A stretch of DNA of 45,422 bases from Flavobacteriales bacterium. Lineage in GTDB: Bacteria > Bacteroidota > Bacteroidia > NS11-12g > UBA955. The stretch covers positions 1 to 45,422 of the forward strand of contig CANHCW010000001.1 of the NCBI GenBank assembly GCA_947459165.1. Reading direction: 5' to 3'. The position numbers were made by a program, and so were the translations under genes. Position 1 is the first letter of the stretch. Each line of letters opens with the position of its first letter. Positions 20,544 through 42,509 of this stretch are shown here, one piece after another. The notes below the pieces were generated by a model that was not told the DNA's origin, ran no database searches, and saw nothing but the letters and a program-made list of their open reading frames with translations.

Positions 20544-20574
20544 TTTGTATGTTTCGAGAGAAAGTGTACTTTTG
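20544..20574 (+). promoter_or_regulatory. Candidate susC promoter: -33 TTTG, 19-nt spacer, -7 TACTTTTG
   Basis: TTTG at 20544-20547 and TACTTTTG at 20567-20574 match the Bacteroides-type consensus TTTG-N19-21-TAnnTTTG. The ATG is at 20604. Confidence 0.45.
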
Positions 20575-20581
20575 ACGCAAA
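20561..20581. promoter_or_regulatory. Operator-like site, left half conserved (AAAGTGT-acttttg-ACGCAAA)
   Basis: Shares AAAGTGTAnnTTTGAC with the MFS-upstream palindrome. The right arm is degenerate (ACGC). Overlaps the -7 box. Confidence 0.3.
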
Positions 20582-23651: not shown

Positions 23652-23653
23652 TC

Positions 23654-25512: not shown

Positions 25513-26396
25513 AAAATCTGATGAAATATACGCTTGCGGCTTTTTTGCTGATATTCTCAGCCAGGGCCAACTCTCAGGCTGCTTTCCTGGATAAACCGGA
25601 TGAATTTGACCCGGCCAAGCCCTGTAAAATTATGGTGAACCTGAAACTCACCACAAACCAATGGGATATTGTGAATATTGCTACCACGGAAGATATGTAT
25701 TTGTGGATTTGGAAGCCAAAGGAGCATCCTGCTGGACATCCGTTGGTAAATGGGTTGGGCTCGGCGGCCTGGAAGAGTAGCAACCCTGCTTTGAAAATGA
25801 CCAAAGAGGCAGAGGGAATTTACAGTTACACCTTTACACCCACATTGTTCTTCGAAACCGATGCGGCTACGATTTACAAAGAAAATTTTCATTTTTTGGT
25901 AAAACCGCAAGATGGAGGGGGGTATGGTGATCCTGACCGGAAAACAGAAGATCTGCTTATTGAAGTTGACCCGCCTGCCGGCCCTGTCGTGAAAATTCAG
26001 AGCTTACCTATAGGTTCAGGTTTAAAGAAGGACACCATAGGGACAACAACGAAAGATGTTTTCAGCATTGTGTACAACAATACTGCCGAAGAGAAAGCAA
26101 CCATGAGAAATGCTGCCGAACTTTATGTATATCCTGTAGCTACAGATTCATCAGGTGCCATATACAAAATAGCGTCCAATCCAAAACGGGTTGCTGATTT
26201 TCCACAGCTGAAAATGAAGCAGACTACAACCGGAATTTTCCAATACAGTTGTGTTCCTGAAAAACTGTTTACCCTGCCTGCAGGCAAAAAGATCTACAGC
26301 ATCGATTTTATGATTGTAAAACCGAATTTGGTTGATTCTAACGATGCCATTGATGACAAAATGCAGTATTTCTTTAATCAGGGCGGGTGCCGCTGA
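25509..26396 (+). CDS. Secreted two-module protein in SusF-like position (candidate glycan-binding protein)
   Basis: ATGA overlap with the upstream gene. Signal peptide. Internal duplication: ..LKMTKEAEGIYSYTFTPTLFF..IYKENFHFLVKP versus ..LKMKQTTTGIFQYSCVPEKLF..IYSIDFMIVKP. Confidence 0.55.
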   Translation: MKNLMKYTLAAFLLIFSARANSQAAFLDKPDEFDPAKPCKIMVNLKLTTNQWDIVNIATTEDMYLWIWKPKEHPAGHPLVNGLGSAAWKSSNPALKMTKEAEGIYSYTFTPTLFFETDAATIYKENFHFLVKPQDGGGYGDPDRKTEDLLIEVDPPAGPVVKIQSLPIGSGLKKDTIGTTTKDVFSIVYNNTAEEKATMRNAAELYVYPVATDSSGAIYKIASNPKRVADFPQLKMKQTTTGIFQYSCVPEKLFTLPAGKKIYSIDFMIVKPNLVDSNDAIDDKMQYFFNQGGCR

Positions 26397-27845: not shown

Positions 27846-27846
27846 T

Positions 27847-30300
27847 TTAATTTTTTGAATAGATATGAATCAGGGCTTGCGTAGGTTGAACGATGAATCC
27901 CCCTCTCAGTCGCACCAAATTGTCTTTATCAAAGCCGGAAGACCATGTGGACTTGAGCTCACCACCAAATTCCTTGAGAATTGGATACAATGCTCCCGGT
28001 TCCACAACATCATCCACGATGGTCTTACTTCCCCTGTTTATGGCCATCACAGCCATTTCATTGAGATATTGGCGCACAACCACAACCTGAGAATCATTGC
28101 AGGTTACTAATTTGTAATCGCCGTAGCAAAGGGCCATACTGCCGGTTCGCAGATTCGCCAGTTCAGAAATTTTGTTTTTGAATTCGGTTTGCTGCCGGGT
28201 TAAGCCTGAAAACTGCATCATATTGCGATTTCCCGGGTCGTTTCCCCCGGTCATTCCTATTTCATCTCCATAGTAAATTACCGGAATTCCTGGCGCTGTA
28301 AAAAGCCAACTGTAAAACTGAAGAAAGCGGGTGTAGGCAGTATCTGATTTCAAAGGCAAATCTCGGGTATGCCCTATTTTTTTTAGTTCATTCCAGCTCA
28401 TGTTGCTATGTAAAGAACCGTCTGCCCACGACATAAACCTGGGTTTATCCTGATTTCCGGTGATGTTTCCCATAAGGTGGTGATGCCCGTAACGATCGAG
28501 GCTTTTTAACTGCTCATTCACCAAAGATTGAAGTGAACCACCTTGCGCAAAAGTTCTTAGCATGGCATCATACAGGTTAAAGTCGAATTGGGCGTCAAGC
28601 AATCCGTGACCAAGGTAAGAACCGATGAGTGCGGAACCGCCATATGTTTCGCCAATCTGATAAATGCGTTGTTTTCGTTTGGGCTCAATTTCGGTGCGTA
28701 TTTTGGCCGTGAGCAGGCGGGTGAAATTTTCCGGAATGTGCTTGGTGGCATCGTGGCGAAAGCCGTCGAATTCAAACTCCTTGAGCCAATAAAGTGCGGA
28801 ATCAACCATGTAGTTCGCCACCTCAGTTCTTCCCAAATCCAGAGTAGGAAGAAAAGTGTCAAACCAGGTCGTGAGCCTTTGTTCATCCCATAATTCTGTA
28901 TTCATGCGCCCATCGGGCAAATACAAGGGTGTAACCCAGTCGGGGTGAAGCTTGTAAATGGGATGTTCTTTGTGAACATGGTGTGCCACATAATCGAGGT
29001 ACACATTGTTGTTTTTTCGGTGCGCCGAAGTGAGCATTTGCCTCAACTGTTCAGCATTGCCAAATCGTTCATCCAGCAGTGTATTGCTCACAGGCCAATA
29101 TCCATGGTAGGCGCTGAATTTTACCTGCGGATCAGGAAAATCACCCCATGCCCCTTTAGGGTTTTTTGAAATGGGGCTAATCCATAGTGCGTTGCTGCCA
29201 AGACTATCAAAATATCCCGCATCAATTTTTTGTTGAATACCCAAAATGTCGCCGCCCTGAAAATTAGTTCTTTCGGTCACTTTCGGATGTGAAAGCGGTT
29301 TGTCGTTGCTTTTGTCACCGTTGTGAAAACGATCAACAAAGGCAAAGTACATTACAGTTTTTTCCAAATCTTCCCGCGAAAGCAATTTGGCATCGGTTAC
29401 AGGGATTCCAAATTCCAGTGGAATCAGCAAATCATTTCCGTGGACGAACTCGGTGGCAGCGAACACGCGAATAAAACTGCGTTTTGTGTTTTTGGCCTCC
29501 TGAGGTATGCTAAGTGCTGTTTCACTTCCCGCAGATCGTGATCTAAAAATAACCTGATTGTTCCACAATGCAATCAGGTTCAATTTTGAATCATTGAGGT
29601 TTTCGGCTTGTCTGATCAGAAGACTGGATGGACTTGTAATTGCTTCGATATGTGGCGAAGGACGCGTTTCTTTCACCGTCAGCACTGAATTTTCCCCTCC
29701 CATTCCGTTGCTTCTTTTCAGCGCATTCTGAGGATCGAGTATGCTGTTGCCGTTTACAACAAGCTGATAGCTGTATTCACCGGGTTCGAGCATTAAGGTT
29801 GTACGGTAGATGTTATCACTGTTTTCAGTGAGTGGTGTTGATTTATCGTTCCAGCTGTTAAAATCGCCCTTTACAAAAACCCGGTCGGAAGGTTTGCCTT
29901 TGAAACTCAATTGAACAGGTATTTTCACCGGTTTTTTCAACACCAGATCACAACGGGTCTTGTCGGTAATATTTAACAATGGAATATCAAATAAAACTCC
30001 GTTGTCGGTTCTGCTGGGGCAAACAATTTTCAGTTCAGGTATATTATTATAAGATAAAACAGTAAGCAGGTTTTCAGATTCTTTTATTTGTTCGTGATTC
30101 GGGTTCACATACAAATTCACACATTTACCAGGAAAAATATCTCCATTGGCTATTGTTGTTGTATCTCCGGTGAGCCAGACGGGCATAACCGGTGCCGATA
30201 ATGAGGCATACGGAATGCTTCCTTTTTGTTTTTTAAACAGTCCGCATGAGCTTAAAGATAGAGAAAGCGATGAAAGCGCTATGCATTTAATGAAATTCAT
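27847..30300 (-). CDS. GH13 alpha-glucan hydrolase lipoprotein with CBM48/E-set-like module (amylase/pullulanase type)
   Basis: Lipobox LSLSLSSC-G. CBM48-like VFVKGDFNSWNDKS...GEYSYQLVVNG. GH13 regions VYLDYVAHH, FDGFRHDATKH, YQIGETYG, GNQDKPRF. Confidence 0.8.
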   Translation of the reverse strand: MNFIKCIALSSLSLSLSSCGLFKKQKGSIPYASLSAPVMPVWLTGDTTTIANGDIFPGKCVNLYVNPNHEQIKESENLLTVLSYNNIPELKIVCPSRTDNGVLFDIPLLNITDKTRCDLVLKKPVKIPVQLSFKGKPSDRVFVKGDFNSWNDKSTPLTENSDNIYRTTLMLEPGEYSYQLVVNGNSILDPQNALKRSNGMGGENSVLTVKETRPSPHIEAITSPSSLLIRQAENLNDSKLNLIALWNNQVIFRSRSAGSETALSIPQEAKNTKRSFIRVFAATEFVHGNDLLIPLEFGIPVTDAKLLSREDLEKTVMYFAFVDRFHNGDKSNDKPLSHPKVTERTNFQGGDILGIQQKIDAGYFDSLGSNALWISPISKNPKGAWGDFPDPQVKFSAYHGYWPVSNTLLDERFGNAEQLRQMLTSAHRKNNNVYLDYVAHHVHKEHPIYKLHPDWVTPLYLPDGRMNTELWDEQRLTTWFDTFLPTLDLGRTEVANYMVDSALYWLKEFEFDGFRHDATKHIPENFTRLLTAKIRTEIEPKRKQRIYQIGETYGGSALIGSYLGHGLLDAQFDFNLYDAMLRTFAQGGSLQSLVNEQLKSLDRYGHHHLMGNITGNQDKPRFMSWADGSLHSNMSWNELKKIGHTRDLPLKSDTAYTRFLQFYSWLFTAPGIPVIYYGDEIGMTGGNDPGNRNMMQFSGLTRQQTEFKNKISELANLRTGSMALCYGDYKLVTCNDSQVVVVRQYLNEMAVMAINRGSKTIVDDVVEPGALYPILKEFGGELKSTWSSGFDKDNLVRLRGGFIVQPTQALIHIYSKN

Positions 30301-32591
30301 TCAATGTGAATATGGTGATCTTTCAATACTTTGAATTCTTGTCCATAGCAAGCGATGGTAGAGTCCGGGCCTTCCAGATTTTGAACGGAAATGGATCGGT
30401 TTTTAATTTGAATGCCAAAAAGATTTTCTCTGAAACGAAGTTGAAACCGAATACTATGCCATTTCTCAGGTAAAGCGGGATTTAAATGTAATTTTTCATT
30501 GCGTACACGAATACCCGCAAATCCTTTGCTGATGGTCATCCAGGTTCCGGCCATACTGGTTATGTGACAACCATCGCAGGTATCGTTGTTAATGTCATTT
30601 AAATCGAGACGAGCCGTGCGCAGGTAAAACTCATAGGCCTTTTCCCTGTTTCCGATTTTATTGGCCAGAATGCTGTGAATGCACGGGGACAACGAGGATT
30701 CATGCACGGTGAACGGTTCGTAAAAGTCGAAATGACGGCGGTGGACTTCCATGTCAAAATCGTCTTCAAAAAAGTAAAATCCCTGCAATACATCGGCCTG
30801 TTTGATATAACAGCTTCTGAGTATTCGATCCCAGCTCCAGTGTTCTACAATGGGTCGCTGTGACGATGGTAGTTCAGATACGGGAATGAGTTCTTTGTCT
30901 AAAAAGCCATCGTGCTGAAGAAACACATTGCGTTCCGCATCAAACGGAAAATACATGTTTGACTGGATGTTCAACCATTGCTCAACTTCAGAAGAATCCA
31001 GTTCGGTTTTTGCTTTAATTTCAAGTAACCTTTTACTGGTGGCTTTGCTTAGCTTATTGTATTGTTCTGCTGCATAACGCATGCACCATGCTGCAATGTA
31101 ATTGGTGTACCAGTTATTGTTTACATTGTTTTCAAACTCGTTTGGACCGGTTACACCCAGCATCACGAATTTTTTTTTATCATTGGACCAATTTACCCGC
31201 TGTGCCCAGAATCGCGCGATTCCAATCAGTACTTCCAGTCCGTTTGAAGCCATGTAATCTTCATCGCCCGTGTAGCGGATGTAATCGTAAATGGCATAAG
31301 CTATGGCACCGTTGCGGTGAATTTCTTCAAAAGTAATTTCCCATTCGTTGTGGCATTCTTCCCCATTCATGGTAACCATGGGGTACAAGGCTGCCCCGTT
31401 TTTAAAACCGAGTTTTTCGGCATTTTCAATCGCTTTTGGCAGTTGCTGATAGCGGTATAGCAAAAGATTGCGTGCAACTTCGGGTGAAGCAGTTCCCAGG
31501 TAAAACGGAATGCAATAGGCTTCTGTATCCCAATAGGTACTGCCACCATATTTTTCGCCGGTAAATCCTTTGGGGCCAATGTTCAGGCGAGCATCGTCGC
31601 CGGTGTAGGTTTGAAAAAGCTGGAAGATATTGAAGCGAATCGCCTGCTGTGCTGATTCATCGCCCTCTATTTCAATATCGCAGTTTTTCCAGATGGCTTT
31701 CCAGGCGGAATATTGTTCATCTTTGAGTGTTTCAAATCCTGCCTGATAGGCCTCGTTAATTTCCCTAATTCCCTGATTCGCAAAATCTTCCCGTTTAACA
31801 TACAAATCACTCAGGATGATGCTGTATTTATCGAAATTCAGTGTTTCTCCTGCTTTCAGCCGGAATTCGTATTCCATGCCTGCATAAAGCTCATGGTTTG
31901 TGCCGTTGGATTTAACAGCCGCCATGCCGCTGTTCCATTTGTGTTGGCATAAGGCATATACACCGAAGTTTGTTTTGCGGGTTTCCTGCGACAGCCAGGC
32001 AATGGGCTGTTCATGAAAATCCGCCTTTGTGTTTTGCCAGAAGAATTCATCGTAATTGGCATCTTGATTTCGAACATCGCCGTTCAGCCCGCTTTTAATG
32101 TGGATTGTGCAATCCTCTTCGGCAGTTAAGCTGTAGCGAATAACCCCCAGGTTTTTGCGGTGCATACTGCAAAAACGCTGTGTTTTTGCGCGGATGGTTT
32201 TGTCTGCTAATTTAACTGTGAATTCCCTGTTCAACACCCCTGCCTGCATGTCCAGTTCTCTTCTGAAATGCAATGGTGTATGCTTGGCCAGATCTATTTC
32301 AGTTCCATCAATGGAAATTTCAATGCTGCTCCAGTTTACTGAATTGAGCACCTTGGCAAAGTATTCGGGGTAGCCGTTTTTCCACCATCCCACGCGGGTT
32401 TTATCGGGGTAATAAATGCCTGCAATGTAGGAACCTCTTAGACTTAAACCTGAATAGGTTTCTTCAAAGTTGCCTCTTTGGCCCATTCGACCATTTCCAA
32501 TGCTGAAAATACTTTCTGAAATTTTACTGTTTTCGGGATGAAAACCGTCTTCAACAATCTTCCAGGGTTTTATCGAGATGTAATCCTTCAT
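30297..32591 (-). CDS. GH65 glycoside phosphorylase, most likely maltose phosphorylase
   Basis: 764 aa. GH65 catalytic-region motif GVTGPNEFENNVNNNWYTNY. Sits immediately upstream of beta-phosphoglucomutase, with ATGA overlaps on both sides. Confidence 0.8.
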   Translation of the reverse strand: MKDYISIKPWKIVEDGFHPENSKISESIFSIGNGRMGQRGNFEETYSGLSLRGSYIAGIYYPDKTRVGWWKNGYPEYFAKVLNSVNWSSIEISIDGTEIDLAKHTPLHFRRELDMQAGVLNREFTVKLADKTIRAKTQRFCSMHRKNLGVIRYSLTAEEDCTIHIKSGLNGDVRNQDANYDEFFWQNTKADFHEQPIAWLSQETRKTNFGVYALCQHKWNSGMAAVKSNGTNHELYAGMEYEFRLKAGETLNFDKYSIILSDLYVKREDFANQGIREINEAYQAGFETLKDEQYSAWKAIWKNCDIEIEGDESAQQAIRFNIFQLFQTYTGDDARLNIGPKGFTGEKYGGSTYWDTEAYCIPFYLGTASPEVARNLLLYRYQQLPKAIENAEKLGFKNGAALYPMVTMNGEECHNEWEITFEEIHRNGAIAYAIYDYIRYTGDEDYMASNGLEVLIGIARFWAQRVNWSNDKKKFVMLGVTGPNEFENNVNNNWYTNYIAAWCMRYAAEQYNKLSKATSKRLLEIKAKTELDSSEVEQWLNIQSNMYFPFDAERNVFLQHDGFLDKELIPVSELPSSQRPIVEHWSWDRILRSCYIKQADVLQGFYFFEDDFDMEVHRRHFDFYEPFTVHESSLSPCIHSILANKIGNREKAYEFYLRTARLDLNDINNDTCDGCHITSMAGTWMTISKGFAGIRVRNEKLHLNPALPEKWHSIRFQLRFRENLFGIQIKNRSISVQNLEGPDSTIACYGQEFKVLKDHHIHIE

Positions 32592-33247
32592 GCTGAATGC
32601 ATCAGTTCTTTAATGCTATCAATGGTGAAGCCCTGCAATCCGGTTGTGCAGATGTCTGCCAAATTCAGTTCTGCAGGGTTTCCAAGTCCCCAAACCCACA
32701 TGCCTGCTTTTTTACCTGCTTGTACGCCGGCAGGAGCATCTTCAACAACAAGGCAGTTTTCAGCCGCTTTTCCCATAAATTCGGCTGCTTTAATAAAAAC
32801 CTCCGGATCGGGTTTGGTTTTGGCAACCATATTTCCGTCAACAATGGCGGTAAAGCGTCTTTCCAGCCCAATTTTGCGCAGAATGAAACGAGCATTTTTC
32901 GAACTGCTGCCCACAGCCAGGCTCAGTCCACGGGAATCCAGGTCATTCAAAAAATCTGTTACGCCGGGCAATATGTCTTTGGCAGAGAGATTTTCAATCG
33001 ATTCAAGATACCTGTTATTTTTTTCTTCAAGCAGTTTTAGTTTATCTGCCTTACTGATGTTTGAATTCGCCCAATTACATATTAATTCCAAACTTTCGCT
33101 GCGGCTTACCCCCTTTAATTTTTCGTTGTGTTCGTGGGTTAGATTCAGCCCCAACTTAAAAGCAATTTCTTTCCAGGCAAAATAGTGATGACCTGCCGTA
33201 TCTGTAAGTACGCCATCCAAGTCAAAAATTACAGCTTTGATATTCAT
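32588..33247 (-). CDS. pgmB: Beta-phosphoglucomutase (HAD superfamily)
   Basis: HAD motif I AVIFDLDGVLTDT, motif II VGSSSKNA, motif III/IV KTKPDPEVF...VVEDAPAGVQAGKKAGM. Confidence 0.85.
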   Translation of the reverse strand: MNIKAVIFDLDGVLTDTAGHHYFAWKEIAFKLGLNLTHEHNEKLKGVSRSESLELICNWANSNISKADKLKLLEEKNNRYLESIENLSAKDILPGVTDFLNDLDSRGLSLAVGSSSKNARFILRKIGLERRFTAIVDGNMVAKTKPDPEVFIKAAEFMGKAAENCLVVEDAPAGVQAGKKAGMWVWGLGNPAELNLADICTTGLQGFTIDSIKELMHSA

Positions 33248-34113
33248 TCTCTTGCGTCCGCCGTTTCGGTTCGCATATTCAAGTGGAACTTCAATAAAGA
33301 CCGGGCAGGATTTTTATCTATAACACCAATTCTAAATCCCCTTTCACCGGCTATGCGGTGCATGATATCACTGAAAAAGTGAGCTACAGAACCTACAAAA
33401 TGAACTGGCACATCGCGGTAATTTGGGTAACACGCAATGTGAATTTCCGCAAACCGATTCAAACCATTGTAAACCATGTTTTTAACATAAGAATGTTCCC
33501 TGTGTGGAACCAAAAACTTCATGAAGGAAGCGAGAAAAACATTGGCATGAGGATTACCATAAACCGAATTAAAAATATCTTCTTTGGTCAGTGAGTAGGT
33601 TTCTTTAAAGCTGCTATCGAGTTCCGGGGGAAGACGATGATAGAGAAAATCGGAGACAATCTGTTTTCCGAAATAAGAGCCGCTGCCTTCATCGCCAAGA
33701 ATGAAGCCCAAGGCGGGAACGATTTCACTCACCAGTTTTCCATCGTAATAGCAACTATTGCTTCCTGTTCCTATGATACAGGTTATGGCAGGCTCTCCTT
33801 TCCAGGTGGCAAATGCCGCCGCATATAAATCATGATTCACAGCGCATTCGGCATTTGGGAAAGCTCTTTTTAAAGCATCAAGAACAATGCTATTTCTTTC
33901 ATTGCTTGAACAACCCGCACCATAAAAGTAAACAGCCTCAATACAATTGGCGTGCTCAGTTAATATGCCATTATTCTGAATGTGCGTGTAAATTTCGTCG
34001 GTTGAAAAGAAGAATGGATTGAAACCAACAGTGTGTGTTTCAATGACATCGCCGTTTTCACGACTTAACAACCAATCACATTTGGTGGATCCGCTTTCTG
34101 CAACAACAATCAT
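33244..34113 (-). CDS. BadF/BadG/BcrA/BcrD-type ATPase; N-acetylglucosamine-kinase-like sugar kinase (predicted glucokinase role)
   Basis: ASKHA motifs VAESGSTKCDW, IIGTGSNSC, LGDEGSGSYFG. It is the first gene of the 5-gene operon. Confidence 0.65.
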   Translation of the reverse strand: MIVVAESGSTKCDWLLSRENGDVIETHTVGFNPFFFSTDEIYTHIQNNGILTEHANCIEAVYFYGAGCSSNERNSIVLDALKRAFPNAECAVNHDLYAAAFATWKGEPAITCIIGTGSNSCYYDGKLVSEIVPALGFILGDEGSGSYFGKQIVSDFLYHRLPPELDSSFKETYSLTKEDIFNSVYGNPHANVFLASFMKFLVPHREHSYVKNMVYNGLNRFAEIHIACYPNYRDVPVHFVGSVAHFFSDIMHRIAGERGFRIGVIDKNPARSLLKFHLNMRTETADARE

Positions 34114-34129
34114 AAATTCCTTAGATTGG

Positions 34130-34137
34130 CAAACTTA
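34130..34137 (-). promoter_or_regulatory. Candidate -7 box (TAAGTTTG on the minus strand) for the kinase-pgmB-GH65-GH13-GH13 operon
   Basis: The reverse complement of 34130-34137 is TAAGTTTG, identical to the MFS -7 box. It ends 16 nt upstream of the ATG at 34113. Confidence 0.4.
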
Positions 34138-34155
34138 GTGTATTTTGTACACAAA
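34135..34155. promoter_or_regulatory. Operator-like site TTAGTGT-attttgt-ACACAAA (GTGT-N7-ACAC core)
   Basis: Same core and spacing as the two strong palindromes. Abuts and overlaps the minus-strand -7 box. Also contains TGTACA and a TTAGT...ACTAA outer repeat. Confidence 0.35.
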
Positions 34156-34236
34156 CTAAAATCAATTTGTTTGGATAAACTATTCACACCTGAAAATGCG
34201 GTAAAAATAATGAACATTCAATGAGTGTTGAGTTTC

Positions 34237-34244
34237 TATATTTG
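34237..34244 (+). promoter_or_regulatory. Candidate -7 box (TATATTTG) for the Nudix-type regulator gene
   Basis: Matches TAnnTTTG and ends 19 nt before the ATG at 34264. It lies downstream of the GTG at 34225 used by the ORF track, which argues for the 34264 start. Confidence 0.35.
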
Positions 34245-34263: not shown

Positions 34264-34974
34264 ATGACCGAACCCCGCATTAACCCCAATGTATCCGTTG
34301 ACTGTGTTATCTTTAGCTTTGAGGACGATGGACTGGAAGTTTTGCTGATTGAACGAAATGCCGGCCAAAATCGGATAGAAGATGATTTGCTGGCACTGCC
34401 CGGAAACCTTATATACGAAGATGAAACTCTGGATGCGGCCGCAAACCGCGTTTTGCGCGAATTGACCGGTTTGAAGAATATTTATTTGGAACAGGTTTAT
34501 ACATTTGGCGATCCGGCACGCATAAACAAACAAAAAGATCAGGACTGGCTGCACAGTATCCGGGCGCATCCCGAGGCAAGGGTGATTACCGTGGCCTATA
34601 CTTCTTTGGTTAAAAAATCAAACTTTAAGATTTCACCCAGTTCGTTCGCAAGGCAAGCCATGTGGGTGAAGGTTAAAGAAGTTCCCCAACTTGCTTTCGA
34701 CCACAATGCCTTGCTTGAAAAGGCGTTGGAGTACTTAAAACATAAAATTTATATTGAACCTCTGGGTTATGAATTGTTGCCCGAAAGATTCACACTGGCG
34801 CAGCTGCAAAAATTATACGAAGCCATTCTCGACGATCATTTTGATAAGCGAAATTTTCGCCGGAAGGTACTGAGAACATCCTTTATCATTCCATTGAACG
34901 AGAAACAAAAAGGTGTTGCACACAAACCGGCGGGGCTTTATCGTTTCGATAAATCGAAATTTCACAAAATCTAG
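34264..34974 (+). CDS. NrtR/AraR-like transcriptional regulator: degenerate Nudix domain + C-terminal winged helix
   Basis: Nudix-box remnant GNLIYEDETLDAAANRVLRELTGL lacks the REUXEE glutamates. The C-terminal LPERFTLAQLQKLYEAILDDHFDKRNFRRKVL is typical of the NrtR-family wHTH. Confidence 0.7.
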   Translation: MTEPRINPNVSVDCVIFSFEDDGLEVLLIERNAGQNRIEDDLLALPGNLIYEDETLDAAANRVLRELTGLKNIYLEQVYTFGDPARINKQKDQDWLHSIRAHPEARVITVAYTSLVKKSNFKISPSSFARQAMWVKVKEVPQLAFDHNALLEKALEYLKHKIYIEPLGYELLPERFTLAQLQKLYEAILDDHFDKRNFRRKVLRTSFIIPLNEKQKGVAHKPAGLYRFDKSKFHKI

Positions 34975-34995
34975 TGATTCTGCGACCTGTCTTAT

Positions 34996-35016
34996 AAAGT
35001 GTAAGTTTGACACTTT
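34996..35016. promoter_or_regulatory. Perfect 21-bp palindrome AAAGTGT-aagtttg-ACACTTT (candidate operator) enclosing a -7 box TAAGTTTG (35002-35009)
   Basis: 7/7 complementary arms read directly from the sequence. Ends 43 nt upstream of the MFS transporter ATG. Confidence 0.5.
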
Positions 35017-35059
35017 GCTGTTTATTGCATACTTTGCGAAACTTCTAATTTGAAAAACA

Positions 35060-36415
35060 ATGGAAAAGAAACCCCGTCTGTCGGTTGCTGAAATAGTTTG
35101 GATGAGCTTTGGATTTATGGGAATTCAATGCGGTTTTGGTCTGCAAAACGGCAATGCCAGCCGAATTTTGGAAGATTTTGGAGCCAAAGTGCATGAACTA
35201 AGCTGGTTTTGGCTGGTGGCTCCGCTGACCGGCATGCTGGTGCAACCATTGATTGGTTATTTCAGCGATAATACCTGGACAAGACTGGGACGAAGAAAAC
35301 CTTATTTTCTGGCCGGAACCTTGCTGTGCTGCATTGCAATAGTGGTTTTACCCAACAGTGCTGCCTGGTTCGCAGGAAAATCGGCGTTGCTGTTCGGCGC
35401 CCTATTTCTAGCCTTGATGGATGCCAGTATCAATGTGGCTATGGAGCCATTTCGAGCTTTGGTTGCCGATAATTTGGGCGACGAACAACGCACCCTTGGC
35501 TTTAGTATTCAAACTTTTCTGATTGGTATAGGTGCTGTTTTGGGAAGCTGGTTGCCCTGGATGATGACAAACCTGTTTCATGTGAGCAATGTAGCTCCAC
35601 GGGGCTATGTGGCCGACAATGTTGTGTATTCTTTTTACGCAGGTGCAGCCTTCTTTCTGGCCAGCATTCTGGTTACGATACTGTTTGCCCGCGAATACGA
35701 TCCCGAAACCTACGCCCGTTATCATGGAGAAAAGCAATCAGACGACAAAGCAGGTTTGTCAGAAATTTTTCGCGATTTCGGTAAAATGCCCAAGGCCATG
35801 CTACAATTGGGGCTTGTTCAGTTTTTCAGCTGGTTTGGACTGTTTTGCATGTGGGTTTATACCACCAAAGGAATTGCTGAAAATGCATACGGCTTGCCCG
35901 TTGGAATATCGGAGTATGATGGCGTCCAAAAGGCAGTGTTCGGCAAAGCCGGCGACTGGGTTGGCATATTGTTTGGCATTTACAATGGTGTGAGTGCCAT
36001 TTATGCTCTGGTATTACCGGCAATCGTGAGGTTGATTGGCAGAAAGCAAACCCATGCTTTATCGCTGGTTTGTGGTGGAATGGGTTTAATTTCCATGTTT
36101 TTCATTACCAATCCCAACAACCTCATTTTTAGCATGATTGGAGTGGGAATGGCCTGGGCAAGTATTCTGGCCATGCCTTATGCTATTCTGGCCGGAAGCA
36201 TACCTGCAGGTAAAATGGGAATTTACATGGGTATTTTCAATTTTTTCATCACCATTCCTCAAATTACCAGCGCTTTACTTGCGGGACCGATGGTTGCTTT
36301 CATATTTGGCAACCAAGCCATCTATGCTTTGTTGACCGGCGGCGCCATGATGCTGTTTGCCGCTGTTTCCATGATTTATGTGAATGACGGCAGGTTAATC
36401 CGAATGAAAGATTGA
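35060..36415 (+). CDS. MFS sugar:cation symporter (GPH/SLC45-like; predicted maltose/maltodextrin inner-membrane importer)
   Basis: 12 predicted TM helices. GYFSDNTWTRLGRRKPY loop motif typical of GPH/sucrose-type transporters. The locus context supports the role. Confidence 0.75.
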   Translation: MEKKPRLSVAEIVWMSFGFMGIQCGFGLQNGNASRILEDFGAKVHELSWFWLVAPLTGMLVQPLIGYFSDNTWTRLGRRKPYFLAGTLLCCIAIVVLPNSAAWFAGKSALLFGALFLALMDASINVAMEPFRALVADNLGDEQRTLGFSIQTFLIGIGAVLGSWLPWMMTNLFHVSNVAPRGYVADNVVYSFYAGAAFFLASILVTILFAREYDPETYARYHGEKQSDDKAGLSEIFRDFGKMPKAMLQLGLVQFFSWFGLFCMWVYTTKGIAENAYGLPVGISEYDGVQKAVFGKAGDWVGILFGIYNGVSAIYALVLPAIVRLIGRKQTHALSLVCGGMGLISMFFITNPNNLIFSMIGVGMAWASILAMPYAILAGSIPAGKMGIYMGIFNFFITIPQITSALLAGPMVAFIFGNQAIYALLTGGAMMLFAAVSMIYVNDGRLIRMKD

Positions 36416-36420
36416 AAAAT

Positions 36421-38259
36421 CTATTTTTTCCGAAAATGTAATACCATTATGCCGTTTGGTGTTAAACCCTTTTCCGGCTGTCCGGCATTTTCATTGGAAA
36501 CAATAACTTTACCTGAATCCCAATCTGCCTCTATATCGGGGTATAGTTTAAAGTTTGGAGTGAATTGGGGATTGGACTGATTCGCAAATATTCCCAGCAC
36601 ATCTTTTTCACCTTCTATAAAGAATGCGTACACCCCGTTTTTGGGAATGTAATGGGTTCTTTTTCCTCTTATAAAAAGTTGCGCATATTCTGCCCGAACT
36701 GATGACAGGGATTGAATAAATTCATACATGACTTGATAGGGGTTCATGGCATCGAAACCAGAAAAGGAATCACCGGGCCAGCCACCGGGAAAATCCTTGC
36801 GTATGGCACCATGCGCGCCGGTATCCCTCATCAGTACTTCGGTTCCGTAAAAAACACAGGGAATTCCCCTGCACATATAAGTCAGGGCCAAAGCCAGTTG
36901 TGTTTTTTTTACATTCTGCCCAAAAGTTGCATGCATACGGTTTAAATCGTGGTTATCGGCAAATGTTACCAGCAACTCCGGGTGTTTGTAAAGTCTGTCC
37001 GAAGCCAGAATATAATAAAGTCGGGTTAGGCCGGTATTCCAGCCAAAGGGTTCGTTCAATGCCTTTTCCAGCCCAAAGCAGAACTGAAAATCGGTTGCGG
37101 CATCGGGCACAATGCTATTTTTGTCGCCAATGTTGTTCGGGGCAAATCCCGCCTGAGCTGTGATGGTATGTTCCCAACTTTCACCAAAAACAAAAATTTC
37201 CGGATAAACTGCCTTCAGTCTGAGATTGAGTTTTTCAAGAAATGCAGGTTGTGAATAAGGATATGTGTCAATACGCACGCCTGAAGCATTGGTAACCGAA
37301 ATCCACCACAGCGTGTTTTGAATGAGGTAATGCGCCAGGTGCAGATTGTCCTGATTCAGATCGGGCATGTGCGTATCGAACCAGCCACGGGTCATACCTT
37401 CAACTTCACTTTTGGCGGCATACGGGTCTGAAAGGGCGGCAACCCTGTAATTTGTTCTTCTGAATGTATCTCCACTGCTGTTGAACCAGGAAGGTGACAC
37501 CATATCGCGGTAGAGAAAATGTCTGTTACCGATGTGGTTGTAAACGCAATCTAAAATGAATTTTACGCCTGAATCACGGCATTGTTGTGCCAGGTTTGCA
37601 TAGTCATTCAGTGTCCCGTAGCGGGGATCAATCCGATAATGGTCGGTGCATGCATAACCATGATAACTTTGCTCGGGCTGATTATTTTCGAGCAAGGGTG
37701 TCATCCACAAGGCGTTAAAGCCCAGCGATTTGATGTGTCCAAGGTGAGAAGCCACGCCGGCTATGTCTCCTCCGTGTCTTCCATGCAGGGCTTTTCGGTC
37801 GGCTTTTTCAACCATATCCTTTGCATTGTCATTGCCATTGTTCCCGTTGGCAAATCGATCAGGCATAATCAAATACATGCGGTCGGCGGCGGTTATCGGC
37901 TTTCCTGATTTCGGTTTCGCCTTTATTTCATAGGGTATTTTGCTTTTGAAATTTTTACCGTAAAGCAGGTTGAATGTTCCGATAAAGTTTTCCGGAATGG
38001 TGAGATAGAGTATTTTGTAATTACTGCTCAGTGAGTTGCAGGTATCAGTAATTTGAATCAAATCGGGCTGGTCAGTTTTGAATGAAATGTGAGTAATTTT
38101 TTCTCCATACAGGAGCAATTGAAGGTTTTTAGACCCCATTTGTGTGAACCAATAGGGTGGTTCAATGCGGAATTTTGTTTGTGACCGGGCTGTTTTAGGA
38201 AACAAAAAAACAACACAACACAAAGAAAAACAATTAATTAACAATTTTTTAGGGTGCAT
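36421..38259 (-). CDS. GH13 neopullulanase/cyclomaltodextrinase-like enzyme (SusA-like) with signal peptide
   Basis: GH13 regions FILDCVYNH, SGVRIDTYPY, VFGESWEH, FADNHDLNRM, plus an N-terminal extra domain. The ATG at 38259 (MHPKKLL..) is preferred over the TTG at 38283. Confidence 0.8.
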   Translation of the reverse strand: MHPKKLLINCFSLCCVVFLFPKTARSQTKFRIEPPYWFTQMGSKNLQLLLYGEKITHISFKTDQPDLIQITDTCNSLSSNYKILYLTIPENFIGTFNLLYGKNFKSKIPYEIKAKPKSGKPITAADRMYLIMPDRFANGNNGNDNAKDMVEKADRKALHGRHGGDIAGVASHLGHIKSLGFNALWMTPLLENNQPEQSYHGYACTDHYRIDPRYGTLNDYANLAQQCRDSGVKFILDCVYNHIGNRHFLYRDMVSPSWFNSSGDTFRRTNYRVAALSDPYAAKSEVEGMTRGWFDTHMPDLNQDNLHLAHYLIQNTLWWISVTNASGVRIDTYPYSQPAFLEKLNLRLKAVYPEIFVFGESWEHTITAQAGFAPNNIGDKNSIVPDAATDFQFCFGLEKALNEPFGWNTGLTRLYYILASDRLYKHPELLVTFADNHDLNRMHATFGQNVKKTQLALALTYMCRGIPCVFYGTEVLMRDTGAHGAIRKDFPGGWPGDSFSGFDAMNPYQVMYEFIQSLSSVRAEYAQLFIRGKRTHYIPKNGVYAFFIEGEKDVLGIFANQSNPQFTPNFKLYPDIEADWDSGKVIVSNENAGQPEKGLTPNGIMVLHFRKK

Positions 38260-38300
38260 CTTTCGGGTGAATTTCTTCAACAAAGTAAAAAAATTTTTTC

Positions 38301-38321
38301 AAAGTGTCTTTTTTACACTTA
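38301..38321. promoter_or_regulatory. 21-bp palindrome AAAGTGT-ctttttt-ACACTTa (candidate operator)
   Basis: 6-bp perfect arms AAGTGT/ACACTT with the same 7-nt spacer. Lies in the divergent GH13 / T9SS-CBM promoter region, 8 nt upstream of a -7 box. Confidence 0.45.
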
Positions 38322-38328
38322 TTGTTTT

Positions 38329-38336
38329 TAGTTTTG
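38329..38336 (+). promoter_or_regulatory. Candidate -7 box (TAGTTTTG) for the T9SS starch-binding-module protein
   Basis: Matches TAnnTTTG and ends 23 nt before the ATG at 38360. Confidence 0.35.
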
Positions 38337-38359: not shown

Positions 38360-39664
38360 ATGATTAAGAATTACTTAACAATTTGTGCTCTGGCTGCAGC
38401 AACAGGTCTGAGTGCTCAAACTGATGTTACACTGATGGTGAATGATCAGAACAACAAAAACAAAACAGCTATTAAAGTAAAAGGTGCGTTCAACGGCTGG
38501 GCAGAAGTTTCTGCCTACGACGACGGAACCAATGGTGATGCTACTGCCAACGACAACATCTGGTCTGTAAAATTTACAGGCGTTGCCGACGGAACTTACG
38601 AGTGGGGAGCTGTTGATCAAACCGGTGGCTGGTTGCTTTCGGGCCGCGCTAATGCCAAATTTACAGTAGCGGGTGCCAGCGTAACCGGCGAAACTGAATT
38701 TGTTATTCCCAAAGCAAAACCCACTCACCCTGTAACCTTTACCATTTCCGATTTAGCCAAAAAAGAATCTCAGGTTTCTTTGAAAGGATCTATGTTCTCA
38801 TGGTCTGCCAAGCCCATGTTTGATGATGGAACCAACGGTGATGCAAAAGCAGGTGACAACATCTGGACTTTGAAAGAGAACATTGAAGAAGGCAACTGGG
38901 AATGGGGAATTGAAAACCAGTGTGGCTGGAAATTGGTAGGCCCCAACAAAAAATACACAGTAAACACCGATGGTACCACAACAGGTGATATCAGCTACAG
39001 CATTCCTGCCCAAACTACCCCAATTAATGTAACCTTCCGCGTTTGGATGGGTGATGTGATTGTGAATGCTGCCGGACTCTATGTGGCAGGTGATTTCATG
39101 GATGCCATTTCAGGTAAGTCTTTGTGCAACTGGACCAAAGATACCCTGCGCATGACCGATGCCAACAAAGACGATGTATATGAATTGCAGGCAGCTTTCT
39201 CTCCCGGATCTTACCAGTTTAAGTTTTTCAATGGACGCGGTGGTGATCAGGATGGTGAAAAAGGTGATTTCAAAACCGGTGGTTGCGGAAACGACAATGG
39301 TTTGGGCGGTTTCAACAGAACGATCAACCTGAGTGGCTTAACCAAAGACACTGTTTTGGTAATTTTCAAATACGACAGTTGCGCCACTTACAAAGCGGCT
39401 ATGTCTTCTGTAAAAAAGAACACCAAAGTGGTTAGCGCCATGTATCCCAACCCTGCAAGCAGCAACGCCAATATTTTGTTCGCTGACAAATCAGCTTCAC
39501 ACAGCGTTGAGGTGATGGATTTGGCCGGTAAAGTGGTTGCAGTGTACAACTTCGCTGAAGGAACAGCCACAGGCACCATCAGTAAGCCAACTTCCGGTAC
39601 TTTCCTGGTGCGTGTTAATTCTTCAAATGGTCAGTCTTCTTCCAGCTTGATCATTTTTGAGTAA
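38360..39664 (+). CDS. T9SS-sorted protein with three tandem CBM48/E-set-like carbohydrate-binding modules and no catalytic domain
   Basis: Signal peptide. Repeats: VKGAFNGWAEVSAYDDGTNGDATANDNIWSVKF..GTYEWG, LKGSMFSWSAKPMFDDGTNGDAKAGDNIWTLKE..GNWEWG, and a third VAGDF...GSYQFKFFNG. C-terminal Por tail MYPNPASSNANILF...GTFLVRVNSSNG. Confidence 0.65.
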   Translation: MIKNYLTICALAAATGLSAQTDVTLMVNDQNNKNKTAIKVKGAFNGWAEVSAYDDGTNGDATANDNIWSVKFTGVADGTYEWGAVDQTGGWLLSGRANAKFTVAGASVTGETEFVIPKAKPTHPVTFTISDLAKKESQVSLKGSMFSWSAKPMFDDGTNGDAKAGDNIWTLKENIEEGNWEWGIENQCGWKLVGPNKKYTVNTDGTTTGDISYSIPAQTTPINVTFRVWMGDVIVNAAGLYVAGDFMDAISGKSLCNWTKDTLRMTDANKDDVYELQAAFSPGSYQFKFFNGRGGDQDGEKGDFKTGGCGNDNGLGGFNRTINLSGLTKDTVLVIFKYDSCATYKAAMSSVKKNTKVVSAMYPNPASSNANILFADKSASHSVEVMDLAGKVVAVYNFAEGTATGTISKPTSGTFLVRVNSSNGQSSSSLIIFE

Positions 39665-39686
39665 AAACTAAAAAAGCAAAAACAAA

Positions 39687-39722
39687 AAGGCAACTTTCAA
39701 TAACTGAAGGTTGCCTTTTTTT
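39687..39722 (+). terminator. Strong intrinsic terminator
   Basis: 13-bp stem (39687-39699 / 39705-39717, one G-U pair), 5-nt loop, 7-T run to 39722. It contains the TTG at 39711 that the ORF track used as the start of the next gene. Confidence 0.8.
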
Positions 39723-39740
39723 CTGATATTTGAGTTGAAT

Positions 39741-42509
39741 ATGAATCGCCTTAAAATTTTACTTTTTTCAATCAGTTTTGGTCTTATCGGCCAGAGTTTC
39801 TCTCAGGTTACCCTTGACCCGGTTTTTGCGTTGCAAACAGATACTGTAATGGTTTATTATGACGCAACCAAAGGAAATGCTGTTTTGAAGGATCTGGGAC
39901 CACCCGATGTGTACATTCACAGCGGGGTTATTACCGAGTTGAGTAAAACACCGGTGGAGTGGCGTTATGTAAAGGGTGTTTGGGGTACTGACGATTTGCC
40001 CAGAAAAATGACTTATGTAGGCAACAATGTTTACAGATTCAAGCTTCATATTCCCACATTCTATGGAGTTCCGGCCAATGAGAAAGTGCTGAAACTCGCT
40101 TTTGTTTTTCGCGACAAATCAGGAAACAAAGTTGGACGCAACGCAGATGGTACTGATATATTCGCCACCATTTTTCAAGCCGGGCTAAAGGCCACCTTTA
40201 CTTCACCCGCAGAAATTCCGGGTATTTTTGAAACCGGCGATACCCTAAAAATAATCGCCACCATTTCTGAAAAGGCGCTTGTATCATTTTATGACAACGG
40301 AGTGTTGGTTGATACCCAGACGACTTCAGAGTACAAAAGAAATGTTACGGGTCTTGCAAGCGGTAATCATCGTTTCGTAGTGAAAGCATTAAAAGGGGGG
40401 ATAACTGCTTCAGATACGCTGAATGTAATGATCAATTCAACAGTGAAAACAGAGGCTCTTCCTGCAGGAATGCTCGATGGTGTAAACTACCTGAATGACA
40501 GCACCGTTTTGTTTTCGCTTTATGCCCCCAATAAAAAATTCGTGTATGTAAACGGCGATTTTTCAAATTGGCAATTAAGCATACCCCAGTTCATGAACAA
40601 AACCCCGGATGGCAAGCGCTGGTGGGCGAAGATTTCCGGCTTGAAACCGGGAACACAATATGGTTACCAGTTCATAGTTGATGGCATCTTAAAAATTGCC
40701 GACCCTCTAAGTGAACTGCTGCTTGATCCTTGGAATGATGGATTCATAAACAAGGCTGATTTTCAGGGTTTACCCAATTATCCCTCCGGCAAAACAACCG
40801 GATTGGTGAGTGTTATCAGACCAGGGTTGAAACCATTTGACTGGAAAAACAGGAATTTCAAAATTCAGGATCCGGCCAAACTGAATGTATATGAACTTCA
40901 CATTCGCGATTTCATTGCGACGCACAGTTATACTGTTTTAATTGATACCCTTGCATATTTAAAGAGATTGGGAATCAATGCCATTGAGTTGATGCCGGTG
41001 AATGAGTTTGAGGGCAATTCCAGTTGGGGCTACAATTCTTCGTACCACATGGCAACGGATAAATATTACGGCAGTCCTGAACAATTAAAAGCCTTTATCG
41101 ACGAGTGCCATAAGCAGGGCATGGCCGTATTTCTCGATGCGGTTCTGAATCATGCCTTTGGGCAAAGCAGTTTGTGTCAGTTGTATTGGAACAGCAGTTT
41201 GAATCAGCCGGCGGCAGACAACCCATGGTTAAACCCAGTTGCCCGGCACGACTTTAATGTGGGTTACGATTTCAATCATGAAAGTCCGGCCACTCAGACT
41301 TATGTTGACAGGGTAATAAAGTATTGGCTCACCGAATTTGATGTAGATGGATTCAGGTTTGATCTTTCCAAGGGATTCACCCAAAACAATACACTGGGCA
41401 ATACAACTGCATGGGGTTACTACGATGCAAGTCGCATTGCTCTGTGGAAGCGCATTCGTGATGTGGTTCGCAGTTATAACAGCGATGCATTGCTCATTTT
41501 GGAACACTTTGCAGATAACTCTGAAGAAAAAGAATTGGCTGGGGAAGGATTTTATTTTTGGGGGAATGCAAATGGTCCGTATACGGAAGCATCTATGGGT
41601 TATTCTTCCGATCTGAATTGGGGAAGCAATTACAAGGCCCGTGGATGGAATGCACCTCGATTGCTTTCGTATATGGAAAGCCATGATGAGGAAAGGATGA
41701 TGTATAAAAACATCACTTTTGGCAATTCCAATGGCGCCTATAATGTTAAAACATTGGCGACGGGCTTGAAAAGAACCGAAATGGCAGCAGTGATTTTTTT
41801 CAGTATTCCCGGCCCAAAAATGATTTGGCAGTTTGGAGAACTGGGTTACGATGTGGGCATCAACACAAATGGACGAACCGGAGAAAAACCCATTCGTTGG
41901 GAATACATGAAGGATCAGCGCAGATTGAATGTTTACAATGTTTTTGCTACCATGATGAATCTTCGCAATCAGTATCAGGTGTTTCACACAGGCAACAACA
42001 ATTTTGAGCTGAACAGCCCGGTGAAAAAAGCATGGTTGCAGGATAATGGACAATTCGTTCACATGATTGCCAACACTGATGTAAAAGCCGTTAATAGTAC
42101 TTTGTATTTTCAGGATACCGGAAAGTGGTATGAGGTTTTCAGTGGAGACAGCATGCGCATTGGCAATATTGCCGTGCCTGTGAATTTACAAGCCGGAGAA
42201 TACCGCCTGTACAGCAATGTAAAAATGCCTGCTGTTCGCCTGCAAATTCCGCTTTCCGGAACATCCAAAACCGATGAAAAACAATTGAGACTATTCCCCA
42301 ATCCTGCACAGAATCAGTTGTTTGTTTCCTGGAACGGACAAAAAGCCATTGCAGAATGCAGGGATTTATCAGGTAAACTAATTGCAAAACAAACGCTTAG
42401 CAATGGGTTTGGAAGCATTCAAACCGACTCTTGGGCACCGGGAATATATTTTGTTCGATTGAACGCAGACGGAATAATCCGGAACGAAAAAATCATTATT
42501 CAACGCTAG
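39741..42509 (+). CDS. T9SS-sorted multidomain GH13 alpha-amylase
   Basis: The ATG at 39741 gives the signal peptide MNRLKILLFSISFGLIGQSFSQ. CBM48-like VYVNGDFSNWQ...GTQYGYQFIVDG. GH13 regions VFLDAVLNH, VDGFRFDLSKGF, LILEHFAD, YMESHDEERM. Por tail LFPNPAQNQLFV...GIYFVRLNADG. Confidence 0.85.
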   Translation: MNRLKILLFSISFGLIGQSFSQVTLDPVFALQTDTVMVYYDATKGNAVLKDLGPPDVYIHSGVITELSKTPVEWRYVKGVWGTDDLPRKMTYVGNNVYRFKLHIPTFYGVPANEKVLKLAFVFRDKSGNKVGRNADGTDIFATIFQAGLKATFTSPAEIPGIFETGDTLKIIATISEKALVSFYDNGVLVDTQTTSEYKRNVTGLASGNHRFVVKALKGGITASDTLNVMINSTVKTEALPAGMLDGVNYLNDSTVLFSLYAPNKKFVYVNGDFSNWQLSIPQFMNKTPDGKRWWAKISGLKPGTQYGYQFIVDGILKIADPLSELLLDPWNDGFINKADFQGLPNYPSGKTTGLVSVIRPGLKPFDWKNRNFKIQDPAKLNVYELHIRDFIATHSYTVLIDTLAYLKRLGINAIELMPVNEFEGNSSWGYNSSYHMATDKYYGSPEQLKAFIDECHKQGMAVFLDAVLNHAFGQSSLCQLYWNSSLNQPAADNPWLNPVARHDFNVGYDFNHESPATQTYVDRVIKYWLTEFDVDGFRFDLSKGFTQNNTLGNTTAWGYYDASRIALWKRIRDVVRSYNSDALLILEHFADNSEEKELAGEGFYFWGNANGPYTEASMGYSSDLNWGSNYKARGWNAPRLLSYMESHDEERMMYKNITFGNSNGAYNVKTLATGLKRTEMAAVIFFSIPGPKMIWQFGELGYDVGINTNGRTGEKPIRWEYMKDQRRLNVYNVFATMMNLRNQYQVFHTGNNNFELNSPVKKAWLQDNGQFVHMIANTDVKAVNSTLYFQDTGKWYEVFSGDSMRIGNIAVPVNLQAGEYRLYSNVKMPAVRLQIPLSGTSKTDEKQLRLFPNPAQNQLFVSWNGQKAIAECRDLSGKLIAKQTLSNGFGSIQTDSWAPGIYFVRLNADGIIRNEKIIIQR

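Follow-up and report, generated by a model that had tools for sequence, protein, structure and literature searches.

How do uncultured freshwater Flavobacteriales decide when to degrade starch? Regulation of polysaccharide utilisation loci is poorly understood outside gut Bacteroides, and in marine Bacteroidetes the regulatory pathways have been stated to be unknown (PMC7641319). The question takes a concrete form in a stretch of 45,422 nucleotides of a Flavobacteriales bacterium (contig CANHCW010000001.1 of assembly GCA_947459165.1), hereafter the window, where Pfam and NCBIfam annotation delineates an alpha-glucan (starch/maltodextrin) utilisation locus between 20.6 and 42.5 kb. Within this locus a perfect palindrome, at 34996-35016, separates the gene of a Nudix-type regulator from that of a sugar transporter of the major facilitator superfamily (MFS). 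What is this palindrome for? Sequence comparison leads us to answer that it is real, and very probably one of four conserved operators of the adjacent regulator.

Read directly, AAAGTGT (34996-35002) is the exact reverse complement of ACACTTT (35010-35016), across a 7-nt spacer, AAGTTTG. The palindrome starts after a gap of 21 nt from the regulator stop (34974) and ends 43 nt before the transporter ATG (35060), as had been read correctly in the original prediction, made from the letters of this DNA. We name this site O-mfs. Further occurrences had been claimed in promoter regions of the locus, one at 38301 and two weaker ones at 34135 and 20561, and they turn out to be real. O-div (AAAGTGT-CTTTTTT-ACACTTA, 38301-38321) lies between the divergent gene of a GH13 cyclomaltodextrinase-like enzyme (minus strand) and a starch-binding/amylase operon of proteins exported through type IX secretion (T9SS; plus strand). 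O-kin (TTAGTGT-ATTTTGT-ACACAAA, 34135-34155) lies between the regulator (plus strand) and a divergent operon (minus strand) coding for a sugar kinase, beta-phosphoglucomutase (bPGM), a GH65 and GH13 enzymes. O-susC (AAAGTGT-ACTTTTG-ACGCAAA, 20561-20581) stands 22 nt before the SusC ATG, and its right arm reads ACGC (20575-20578), a weakened half-site. None of the four palindromes is assigned a strand. Their scores with a position weight matrix (PWM) are 25.4 for O-mfs, 25.1 for O-div, 19.7 for O-kin and 15.2 for O-susC.

When all 14 arm bases are specified and at most one mismatch is tolerated, the window contains two matches (34996 without mismatch, 38301 with one), while dinucleotide shuffles let us expect 0.03 and none of 100 shuffles reaches two. 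Relaxing this pattern to three mismatches is uninformative (six matches in the window for 3.6 expected) and misses both 34135 and 20561; searches with the core and with the PWM were used in its place. Three places in the window (34137, 34998 and 38303) have the core AGTGT-N7-ACAC without mismatch and a fourth, 20563, has it with one, and scanning the whole 45 kb with the PWM at a score of at least 10 returns solely 20561, 34135, 34996 and 38301. All four matches are intergenic and within the alpha-glucan locus. They occupy precisely its four promoter-bearing gaps, the other internal gaps being convergent gene ends or intra-operon junctions.

With a stop codon shortly before it and a moderately T-rich stretch behind it, the palindrome at 34996 might be taken for the intrinsic terminator of the regulator gene. 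Yet its arms are not paired together in the minimum free energy RNA fold of 34975-35045 (z = -0.57; 59 of 200 shuffles as good), and a stem made from them would have only two G-C pairs in seven, so that no stable G+C-rich hairpin comes from the two arms. Furthermore, these arms are invariant where a hairpin would let them covary, and the motif is also found in divergent promoter regions and before susC, where no gene ends. We rejected the terminator, and see very little chance that this is what the palindrome is.

Conservation of the palindrome

Scanning one genome per species for relatives of the regulator gave 80 loci (1.26 Mb; 51-82% identity), mostly from metagenome-assembled genomes of freshwater and marine Flavobacteriales, Crocinitomicaceae and Cryomorphaceae. 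The core GTGT-N7-ACAC occurs 100 times in these sequences, against 16 expected from block shuffles, and the test is not circular because this core came from the window alone. The distribution of the matches is telling: 71 precede the regulator gene by 54-215 nt, nine follow its stop by 16-66 nt and eight are about 3.4 kb downstream, while the 12 found elsewhere are equal to background (16 expected). These three recurrent positions are exactly those that the window shows. The position of O-kin carries GTGT-N7-ACAC in 71 of the 80 loci, that of O-mfs a homologous site in loci L001-L009, and that of O-div is conserved in L001-L004 and L006-L009. Inverted repeats that are short and rich in A/T are frequent between genes, which would speak for a chance palindrome; with two stringent matches where 0.03 were expected, and 88 occurrences at homologous positions of independent genomes next to 12 at background, we give chance practically no credence.

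In these matches the invariance of GTGT and ACAC is fixed by the search pattern itself; around them the flanking bases remain A/T-rich, and the spacers and the sequence outside the 21 bp vary. A set of 56 unique sites yields the symmetrised consensus TAAGTGTCAAATTGACACTTA, a 21-bp palindrome with a GT-N7-AC core. The regulator also keeps the company of its putative target genes. A kinase-(GH13-MFS)-bPGM-GH65 operon diverges from it in 66 of the 72 loci with enough upstream sequence; of the six loci that lack this operon, three (L026, L040 and L068) lack the site too. The regulator homologues of these three loci (56-57% identity) are not beside a kinase/maltose operon, and two short loci, L038 and L044, likewise have no upstream palindrome; the homologues of all five may be paralogues that serve another target or read a different site.

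For O-susC, a metagenome scan with the N-terminus of SusC produced 70 loci. In orthologues of 64-73% identity, AAAGTGTACTTTTGAC(A/G)C stands at a conserved place, 31-43 nt before the ATG. Many of the more distant homologues carry between one and three complete palindromes 51-137 nt upstream, and two of the loci have one at -318 as well. Thus the expectation that the motif would be conserved upstream of orthologous genes is borne out both at the regulator and at susC, and the two sites described as weaker, which fail the 14-base search with three mismatches, are confirmed by conservation. The weakened right arm is itself recurrent: it reads ACGC in the window and in L086, L089, L090, L092-L094, L125 and L130, and ACAC in L082-L085, L087, L088 and L091. 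This might set a lower repression threshold for susC. The presence of two or three palindromes before some distant SusC homologues (L115:2216-2395; L119 and L141, at -318 and about -137) recalls the tandem AraR sites at araM of Bacteroides.

After correction of the starts of open reading frames (ORFs), essentially all PWM matches are intergenic, in sequence of which only about 5% is intergenic. Between 14 and 24 of them had first been classed as coding; inspection revealed ORFs over-extended to the first GTG or TTG, and only two weak matches, in L037 (16.1) and L072 (13.5), are truly inside genes. A match at 16982 of L042, with a score of 15.6, has a cation-efflux gene on one side and lptD on the other; it was judged to be due to chance and was not retained as an operator. 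An intergenic shuffle control gives 80 observed matches for 0.04 expected, a ratio that is partly circular, the PWM having been trained on those very sites; the count made with the window-derived core is the one to rely on.

The operator also appears before genes of a quite different standing. It precedes pfkA (6-phosphofructokinase), first gene of the divergent maltose operon, in L011, L013, L020, L025, L032, L051 and L052, at 7901-7921 in L013 and 29-37 nt before the ATG in the other six, and it is found before pfkA in L049 and L067 as well. Two further sites precede gapA (glyceraldehyde-3-phosphate dehydrogenase), at L043:18992-19012 and L079:1030-1050, with a GH31 or T9SS-GH13 gene adjoining. 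In some lineages, therefore, the regulon would extend into central glycolysis.

A regulator of the NrtR family

Which protein could read these sites? The gene that ends just before the palindrome (34264-34974, plus strand) codes for 236 residues; we place its start at ATG 34264 and not at GTG 34225 of the ORF list because its orthologues have 236 residues. It had been proposed to be a member of the NrtR family, and this is well supported. The protein has the architecture of that family, an N-terminal Nudix-like domain followed by a C-terminal NrtR-type winged helix, with Pfam matches to NUDIX (5e-09), NrtR_WHD (2.6e-26) and AraR_C (1.9e-13), each above cut-off. Its best sequence relative in PDB is AraR of Bacteroides thetaiotaomicron (BtAraR; 5bs6, E = 2e-41), followed by NrtR of Shewanella (3gz5, 1e-17). 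The AlphaFold model (mean predicted local distance difference test score, pLDDT, 87.9; predicted template modelling score, pTM, 0.85) gives the same ranking with Foldseek, which matches it over its full length with the BtAraR structures 5bs6, 5dd4 and 5deq (36-37% identity; template modelling score 0.73-0.81), then with Shewanella oneidensis NrtR (SoNrtR). Judged by sequence and fold, by the form of the operator and by the placement and conservation of the sites, it is an NrtR-family member, with DNA binding predicted to be relieved by an effector.

Most NrtR motifs are 21-bp palindromes with a conserved GT-N7-AC core, and arabinose and xylose regulons have been predicted for NrtR members of Bacteroidetes (Rodionov et al., 2008, PMC2330246). 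BtAraR binds cccccTACTCAAAGTGTAAAAAAGACACTTATATAAccccc in electrophoretic mobility shift assays (EMSA), was crystallised on GCAAAAGTGTTACTTTTACACCCATGC, and its binding is abolished by L-arabinose (Chang et al., 2015, PMC4666351); the operators that it bound in EMSA are AAAGTGTAAAAAAGACACTTA and AAAGTGTTACTTTTACACCCA (PMC4666351). The half-site of our palindromes, AAAGTGT, is that of BtAraR, and the two systems share the 21-bp form AAAGTGT-N7-ACACTT(A/T). Indeed, the reverse complement of the site at 38301, TAAGTGTAAAAAAGACACTTT, differs from the EMSA-validated BT0365 operator only at the outermost bases. The likeness to NrtR operators, which the original prediction had put forward, finds its counterpart in the literature. 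It extends to the residues that read the DNA. The structure of BtAraR attributes recognition of the GTGT motif to Lys179, Arg180 and Asn181 of the recognition helix, to Lys184 and to Lys204/Arg205 of the wing (PMC4666351). A HMMER alignment places the D-K-R-N-F-R segment of BtAraR on D194-K195-R196-N197-F198-R199 here, which is invariant among 55 homologues; K179, R180 and N181 are therefore present as K195, R196 and N197, and Lys184 corresponds to R200.

The Nudix domain tells another story. Its degenerate Nudix box, R62-V-L-R-E-L-T-G-L, follows the pattern of BtAraR (RVLxELTGL in both). In the signature GX5EX7REUXEEXGU two of the three glutamates of REUXEE are replaced and the glycine of GX5E is N48; the signature is impaired likewise in AraR (PMC4666351). 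As far as these residues tell, this is a domain for ligand binding and not for catalysis. Lys76, which binds phosphate in SoNrtR, is Leu67 here, as in AraR, and a neutral sugar larger than arabinose is a plausible ligand. Some arabinose ligands of BtAraR are kept (Arg34, Gly47, Val92, Phe129 and His131 are R31, G47, V107, F145 and H147), while Phe36, Gly48 and Phe49 have become A33, N48 and L49. The equivalent of R86 is ambiguous owing to an insertion of about 15 residues (84-99; PARINKQKDQDWLHSI; window 34513-34560), conserved in the clade of the regulator. This insertion has invariant R86, D92 and W95, is directly followed by an invariant R100, takes a helical form in the model (residues 90-99, pLDDT about 76-81) and aligns next to Arg86 of BtAraR, an arabinose ligand.

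An AraR orthologue would have the full set of arabinose-binding residues (R34, R86, H131; F36, G47, G48, F49, V92, F129), and would be found among arabinose genes with sites before ara genes. The set is incomplete, and the genes are otherwise in the window and in 66 of the 72 loci; since these pocket residues and this genomic association are the defining features, we conclude that the regulator is not one. What BtAraR (BT0354; PDB 5bs6, 5dd4, 5ddg, 5deq) has in common with it, besides being the best match in sequence and fold, is a dead Nudix domain joined to a winged helix-turn-helix, the K-R-N readers of GTGT, and control of both SusC/D-type and cytoplasmic catabolic genes, the same types of target that we predict here. 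The targets themselves differ, being alpha-glucan and maltose genes (GH13, GH65, bPGM, kinase, MFS, susCDEF) and not arabinose genes; the window has single sites where BtAraR has a tandem pair at araM, and the hosts are of the freshwater Flavobacteriales type, not gut Bacteroides.

Other members of the family are more remote. NrtR of Shewanella oneidensis and Synechocystis (PMC2330246; PDB 3gz5, 3gz6, 3gz8) has the same 21-bp GT-N7-AC palindrome, placed in the promoters of genes clustered with the regulator, and is a repressor released by a small ligand in its Nudix domain; it senses ADP-ribose and controls NAD metabolism, however, and its identity to the present protein is about 29-30%. XylR (BT0791), the predicted NrtR-family xylose regulator of Bacteroides, represents another sugar-responsive branch in Bacteroidetes; its regulon of xylose genes sets it apart, by description only. 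The task considered here, induction of starch and maltose genes including susC/D by a product of starch breakdown, is that of SusR (BT3705) and of MalR-type regulators of the LacI family. SusR, an activator, spans the membrane, senses maltose in the periplasm and works through direct-repeat sites, and regulators of the LacI type differ in both fold and operators, whereas the present protein is a cytoplasmic Nudix-type regulator with an AraR-type palindrome. Annotation of the locus reveals no SusR or LacI gene.

Operators, promoter boxes and probable repression

Promoters of Bacteroidota differ from those read by sigma-70: they consist of a -33 element, TTTG or TTG, and a -7 box, TAnnTTTG, about 19 nt apart, and it is against this consensus that we read the boxes. 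At susC (plus strand) the promoter TTTG-N19-TACTTTTG spans 20544-20574, with TTTG at 20544-47 and the -7 box (20567-20574) inside the spacer of the operator; all close SusC orthologues keep TTG-N19-TAnnTTTG in the same register. The kinase operon has its -7 box, TAAGTTTG, at 34130-34137 (minus strand), overlapping the last 3 nt of O-kin. In nine loci of the clade of the window this box is at +8 from the palindrome centre and overlaps the distal arm, and among 68 unique upstream regions there are 37 where a TAnnTTTG on the strand of the kinase operon ends 1-2 nt before the operator, so that transcription would start inside it. On the opposite strand, a -7 box of the regulator overlaps the left arm in ten loci, which implies autoregulation there.

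The transporter promoter is where the original prediction has to be amended. Its claim was that TAAGTTTG, at 35002-35009 and thus within the palindrome, is the -7 box of the transporter. In favour of this view, the same arrangement, a TAnnTTTG 4 nt left of centre, is conserved together with TTG-N19 at the SusC operator. Against it, spacers of the orthologous sites read TTTTATTG, TTTATTTG, TTTGTTTG, TTGATTTG or TACACTG, with no conserved TAnnTTTG, and there is no TTG 19 nt upstream of the spacer box. Conservation is seen instead in TTGACAC (L001-L004, L006-L008 and the window), the TTG of which lies in the O-mfs spacer (35007-35009, plus strand) and also ends the TAAGTTTG box; 20 nt downstream follows a -7-like box, TACTTTG (35030-35036, plus strand), the position of which carries TAGTTTG or TAGATTG in L001-L008 while its flanks diverge. 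Because TTGACAC and the TAnnTTG 20 nt further on are conserved and the spacer TAnnTTTG is not, the TTG of the spacer is more likely to be the -33 element of the transporter promoter, and we keep TAAGTTTG as its -7 box only as an alternative. Under either reading the operator is placed on the core promoter of the transporter.

Two promoters flank O-div. The GH13 gene has a -7-like box, TTACTTTG (38281-38288, minus strand), spaced from the operator just as in the transporter promoter, and TnCTTTGTTGAA is conserved at this promoter in L006-L008 and the window. On the other side, the -7 box of the T9SS operon, TAGTTTTG (38329-38336, plus strand), comes 7 nt after O-div, and a TAnnTTTG 7-8 nt after the operator is conserved at this position in L001-L009. 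At the transporter and GH13 promoters, then, the operator covers the -33 region, and over the whole set of promoters its positions range from the -33 region through the start of transcription.

We propose the following mechanism. The homodimeric AraR-like regulator (34264-34974) would bind the 21-bp palindrome, each winged helix reading one AAAGTGT, at the operators that cover susCDEF (20561), the kinase-bPGM-GH65-GH13 operon (34135), the MFS transporter (34996) and the divergent GH13 and T9SS-amylase promoters (38301). Without inducer, the dimer would sit on the -33, -7 or start-site region and block RNA polymerase. A sugar from the breakdown of alpha-glucans would then bind the catalytically dead Nudix domain, rotate the DNA-binding domains and release the DNA, by analogy with what L-arabinose does to BtAraR. 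That the protein binds, that it represses and what releases it, we infer. Among effectors maltose seems most likely, glucose or a short malto-oligosaccharide being alternatives; in view of the GH65/bPGM/kinase pathway maltose is the simplest candidate. The repressor logic of the original prediction agrees with the positions of the sites relative to the promoter boxes and with the known behaviour of BtAraR. We hold this model of operators and repressor, together with its alpha-glucan regulon, with considerable confidence.

Several facts weigh against it. The wing pair K204/R205 of BtAraR, which contacts the minor groove, is H220/K221 here. The half-site is identical to that of BtAraR, so that, from the sequence of the site alone, a paralogue of the AraR type encoded elsewhere might in principle be its reader. 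Autoregulation is not evident in the window, where about 90 nt separate the -7-like box of the regulator, TATATTTG (34237-34244), from the closest operator. Seen by itself, the place of the operator centre at the promoters of the transporter and of the GH13 gene, some 35-40 nt before the presumed start, would also suit an activator. Finally, pocket and insertion differ from AraR, so that the effector cannot be read from homology, and the operators before pfkA and gapA make glucose, or a metabolite reporting flux, a possible effector.

Two of these facts open the way to rival accounts. The sites might be bound by another factor, an AraR or XylR paralogue encoded elsewhere or a protein of the CRP/FNR type (palindromes in GTG...CAC look superficially like CRP sites), the adjacent regulator being a bystander. 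This we find improbable. In 71 of 80 genomes the site and this regulator gene occur together, and the site is missing from three loci (L026, L040 and L068) whose regulator is not beside the maltose operon; the DNA-reading residues of the regulator match the GTGT readers of BtAraR, and no arabinose or xylose gene was found near any site, in the annotated window or in the related loci. It is this close association of the site with the regulator gene and the maltose operon that makes us prefer the local regulator to a paralogue of the AraR type. A CRP/FNR-type site was rejected for its spacing, GTG-N9-CAC in all sites, where the CRP consensus, TGTGA-N6-TCACA, gives GTG-N8-CAC.

Alternatively, the regulator would bind the sites and, at some promoters, activate or have a dual role. 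For the transporter and the GH13 gene, about 23 nt separate the operator centre from the conserved -7-like box downstream of it, which is near to where class II activators sit in other bacteria. Activation is nevertheless incompatible with a -7 box inside the operator, as at susC, and with an operator directly downstream of the -7 box, as in those 37 of 68 regions of the kinase operon; moreover, NrtR and BtAraR, where characterised, are described as repressors with negative effectors. We deem an activating role as improbable as a foreign factor. Steric repression would fit all operator positions and is the best model; activation cannot fit the susC and kinase-operon cases.

How new is this? 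The operator and the mechanism are familiar, and members of this family that had been recruited to sugar catabolism were already known from Bacteroidetes, so that nothing here is surprising in principle. What is apparently new is the regulon, a starch locus with pfkA or gapA added in some genomes, and the probable effector; a full-text literature search, of incomplete coverage, found no NrtR/Nudix regulator linked to maltose, starch or alpha-glucan loci. Among uncultured Flavobacteriales the system is widespread. For these freshwater organisms the locus offers a complete and testable regulon model of the archetypal starch system, with one cytoplasmic repressor and a 21-bp operator per promoter, and alpha-glucan regulons of metagenome-assembled genomes can be annotated with the motif as it stands. 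If the model is true, the effectors of Nudix-domain transcription factors (ADP-ribose, NAD, L-arabinose and presumably xylose) would extend to alpha-glucan sugars, the half-site AAAGTGT staying fixed while effector and regulon change. A bolder proposal, to which we would give slightly less than even chances, is that an undescribed NrtR/AraR branch has replaced the SusR/LacI-type role in abundant freshwater and marine Flavobacteriales, sensing maltose or glucose through its insertion-remodelled Nudix domain and repressing the whole starch locus, with pfkA or gapA in some lineages. It would then be a one-component master switch joining polysaccharide uptake to central carbon flux.

Gene content of the locus

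These promoters precede the genes of a starch system. On the plus strand, the outer-membrane operon (20604-26396) codes for SusC (Plug and CarboxypepD_reg domains), SusD and two SusE/F-like proteins, DUF4961 being a further domain matched in it. The maltose/maltodextrin catabolic operon, assigned from Pfam and NCBIfam, occupies 26472-34113 on the minus strand with five genes, coding for a BadF-type sugar kinase (33244-34113), beta-phosphoglucomutase (32588-33247), a GH65 maltose phosphorylase (30297-32591), a GH13+CBM48 enzyme (27847-30300) and a GH13 enzyme (26472-27845). Directly 3' of the palindrome, the MFS sugar transporter (35060-36415, plus strand; Pfam MFS_1 and MFS_2) is of a GPH/sucrose-symporter-like type, its NCBIfam match to GPH_sucrose being below cut-off. 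It is followed by the SusA-like gene of a GH13 cyclomaltodextrinase/neopullulanase (36421-38259, minus strand; Pfam Alpha-amylase and Cyc-maltodext_N).

No further regulator gene appears in the Pfam/NCBIfam annotation of the locus. Some 2.3 kb upstream of it, a MarR-family gene (17763-18212), beside kynureninase-like and Ppx/GppA genes, has no site of the motif and no apparent link with the starch locus. The mechanical ORF starts at 34225, 20586 and 38283 are probably wrong, the likely ones being ATG 34264 for the regulator, ATG 20604 for SusC and ATG 38259 for the GH13 gene; the TTG at 38283 is the end of the -7-like box and hence not a likely start.

Finally, the secreted part of the system (38360-42509, plus strand) carries T9SS C-terminal sorting domains. 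It begins with a choice-of-anchor-X/X25-like protein (38360-39664), which has a weak match, below the Pfam cut-off, to the pullulanase X25 domain. The GH13+CBM48 amylase/pullulanase that follows (39711-42509) is a T9SS enzyme of 932 residues, in contrast with the lipoprotein amylase of the SusG type that belongs to the Bacteroides paradigm.

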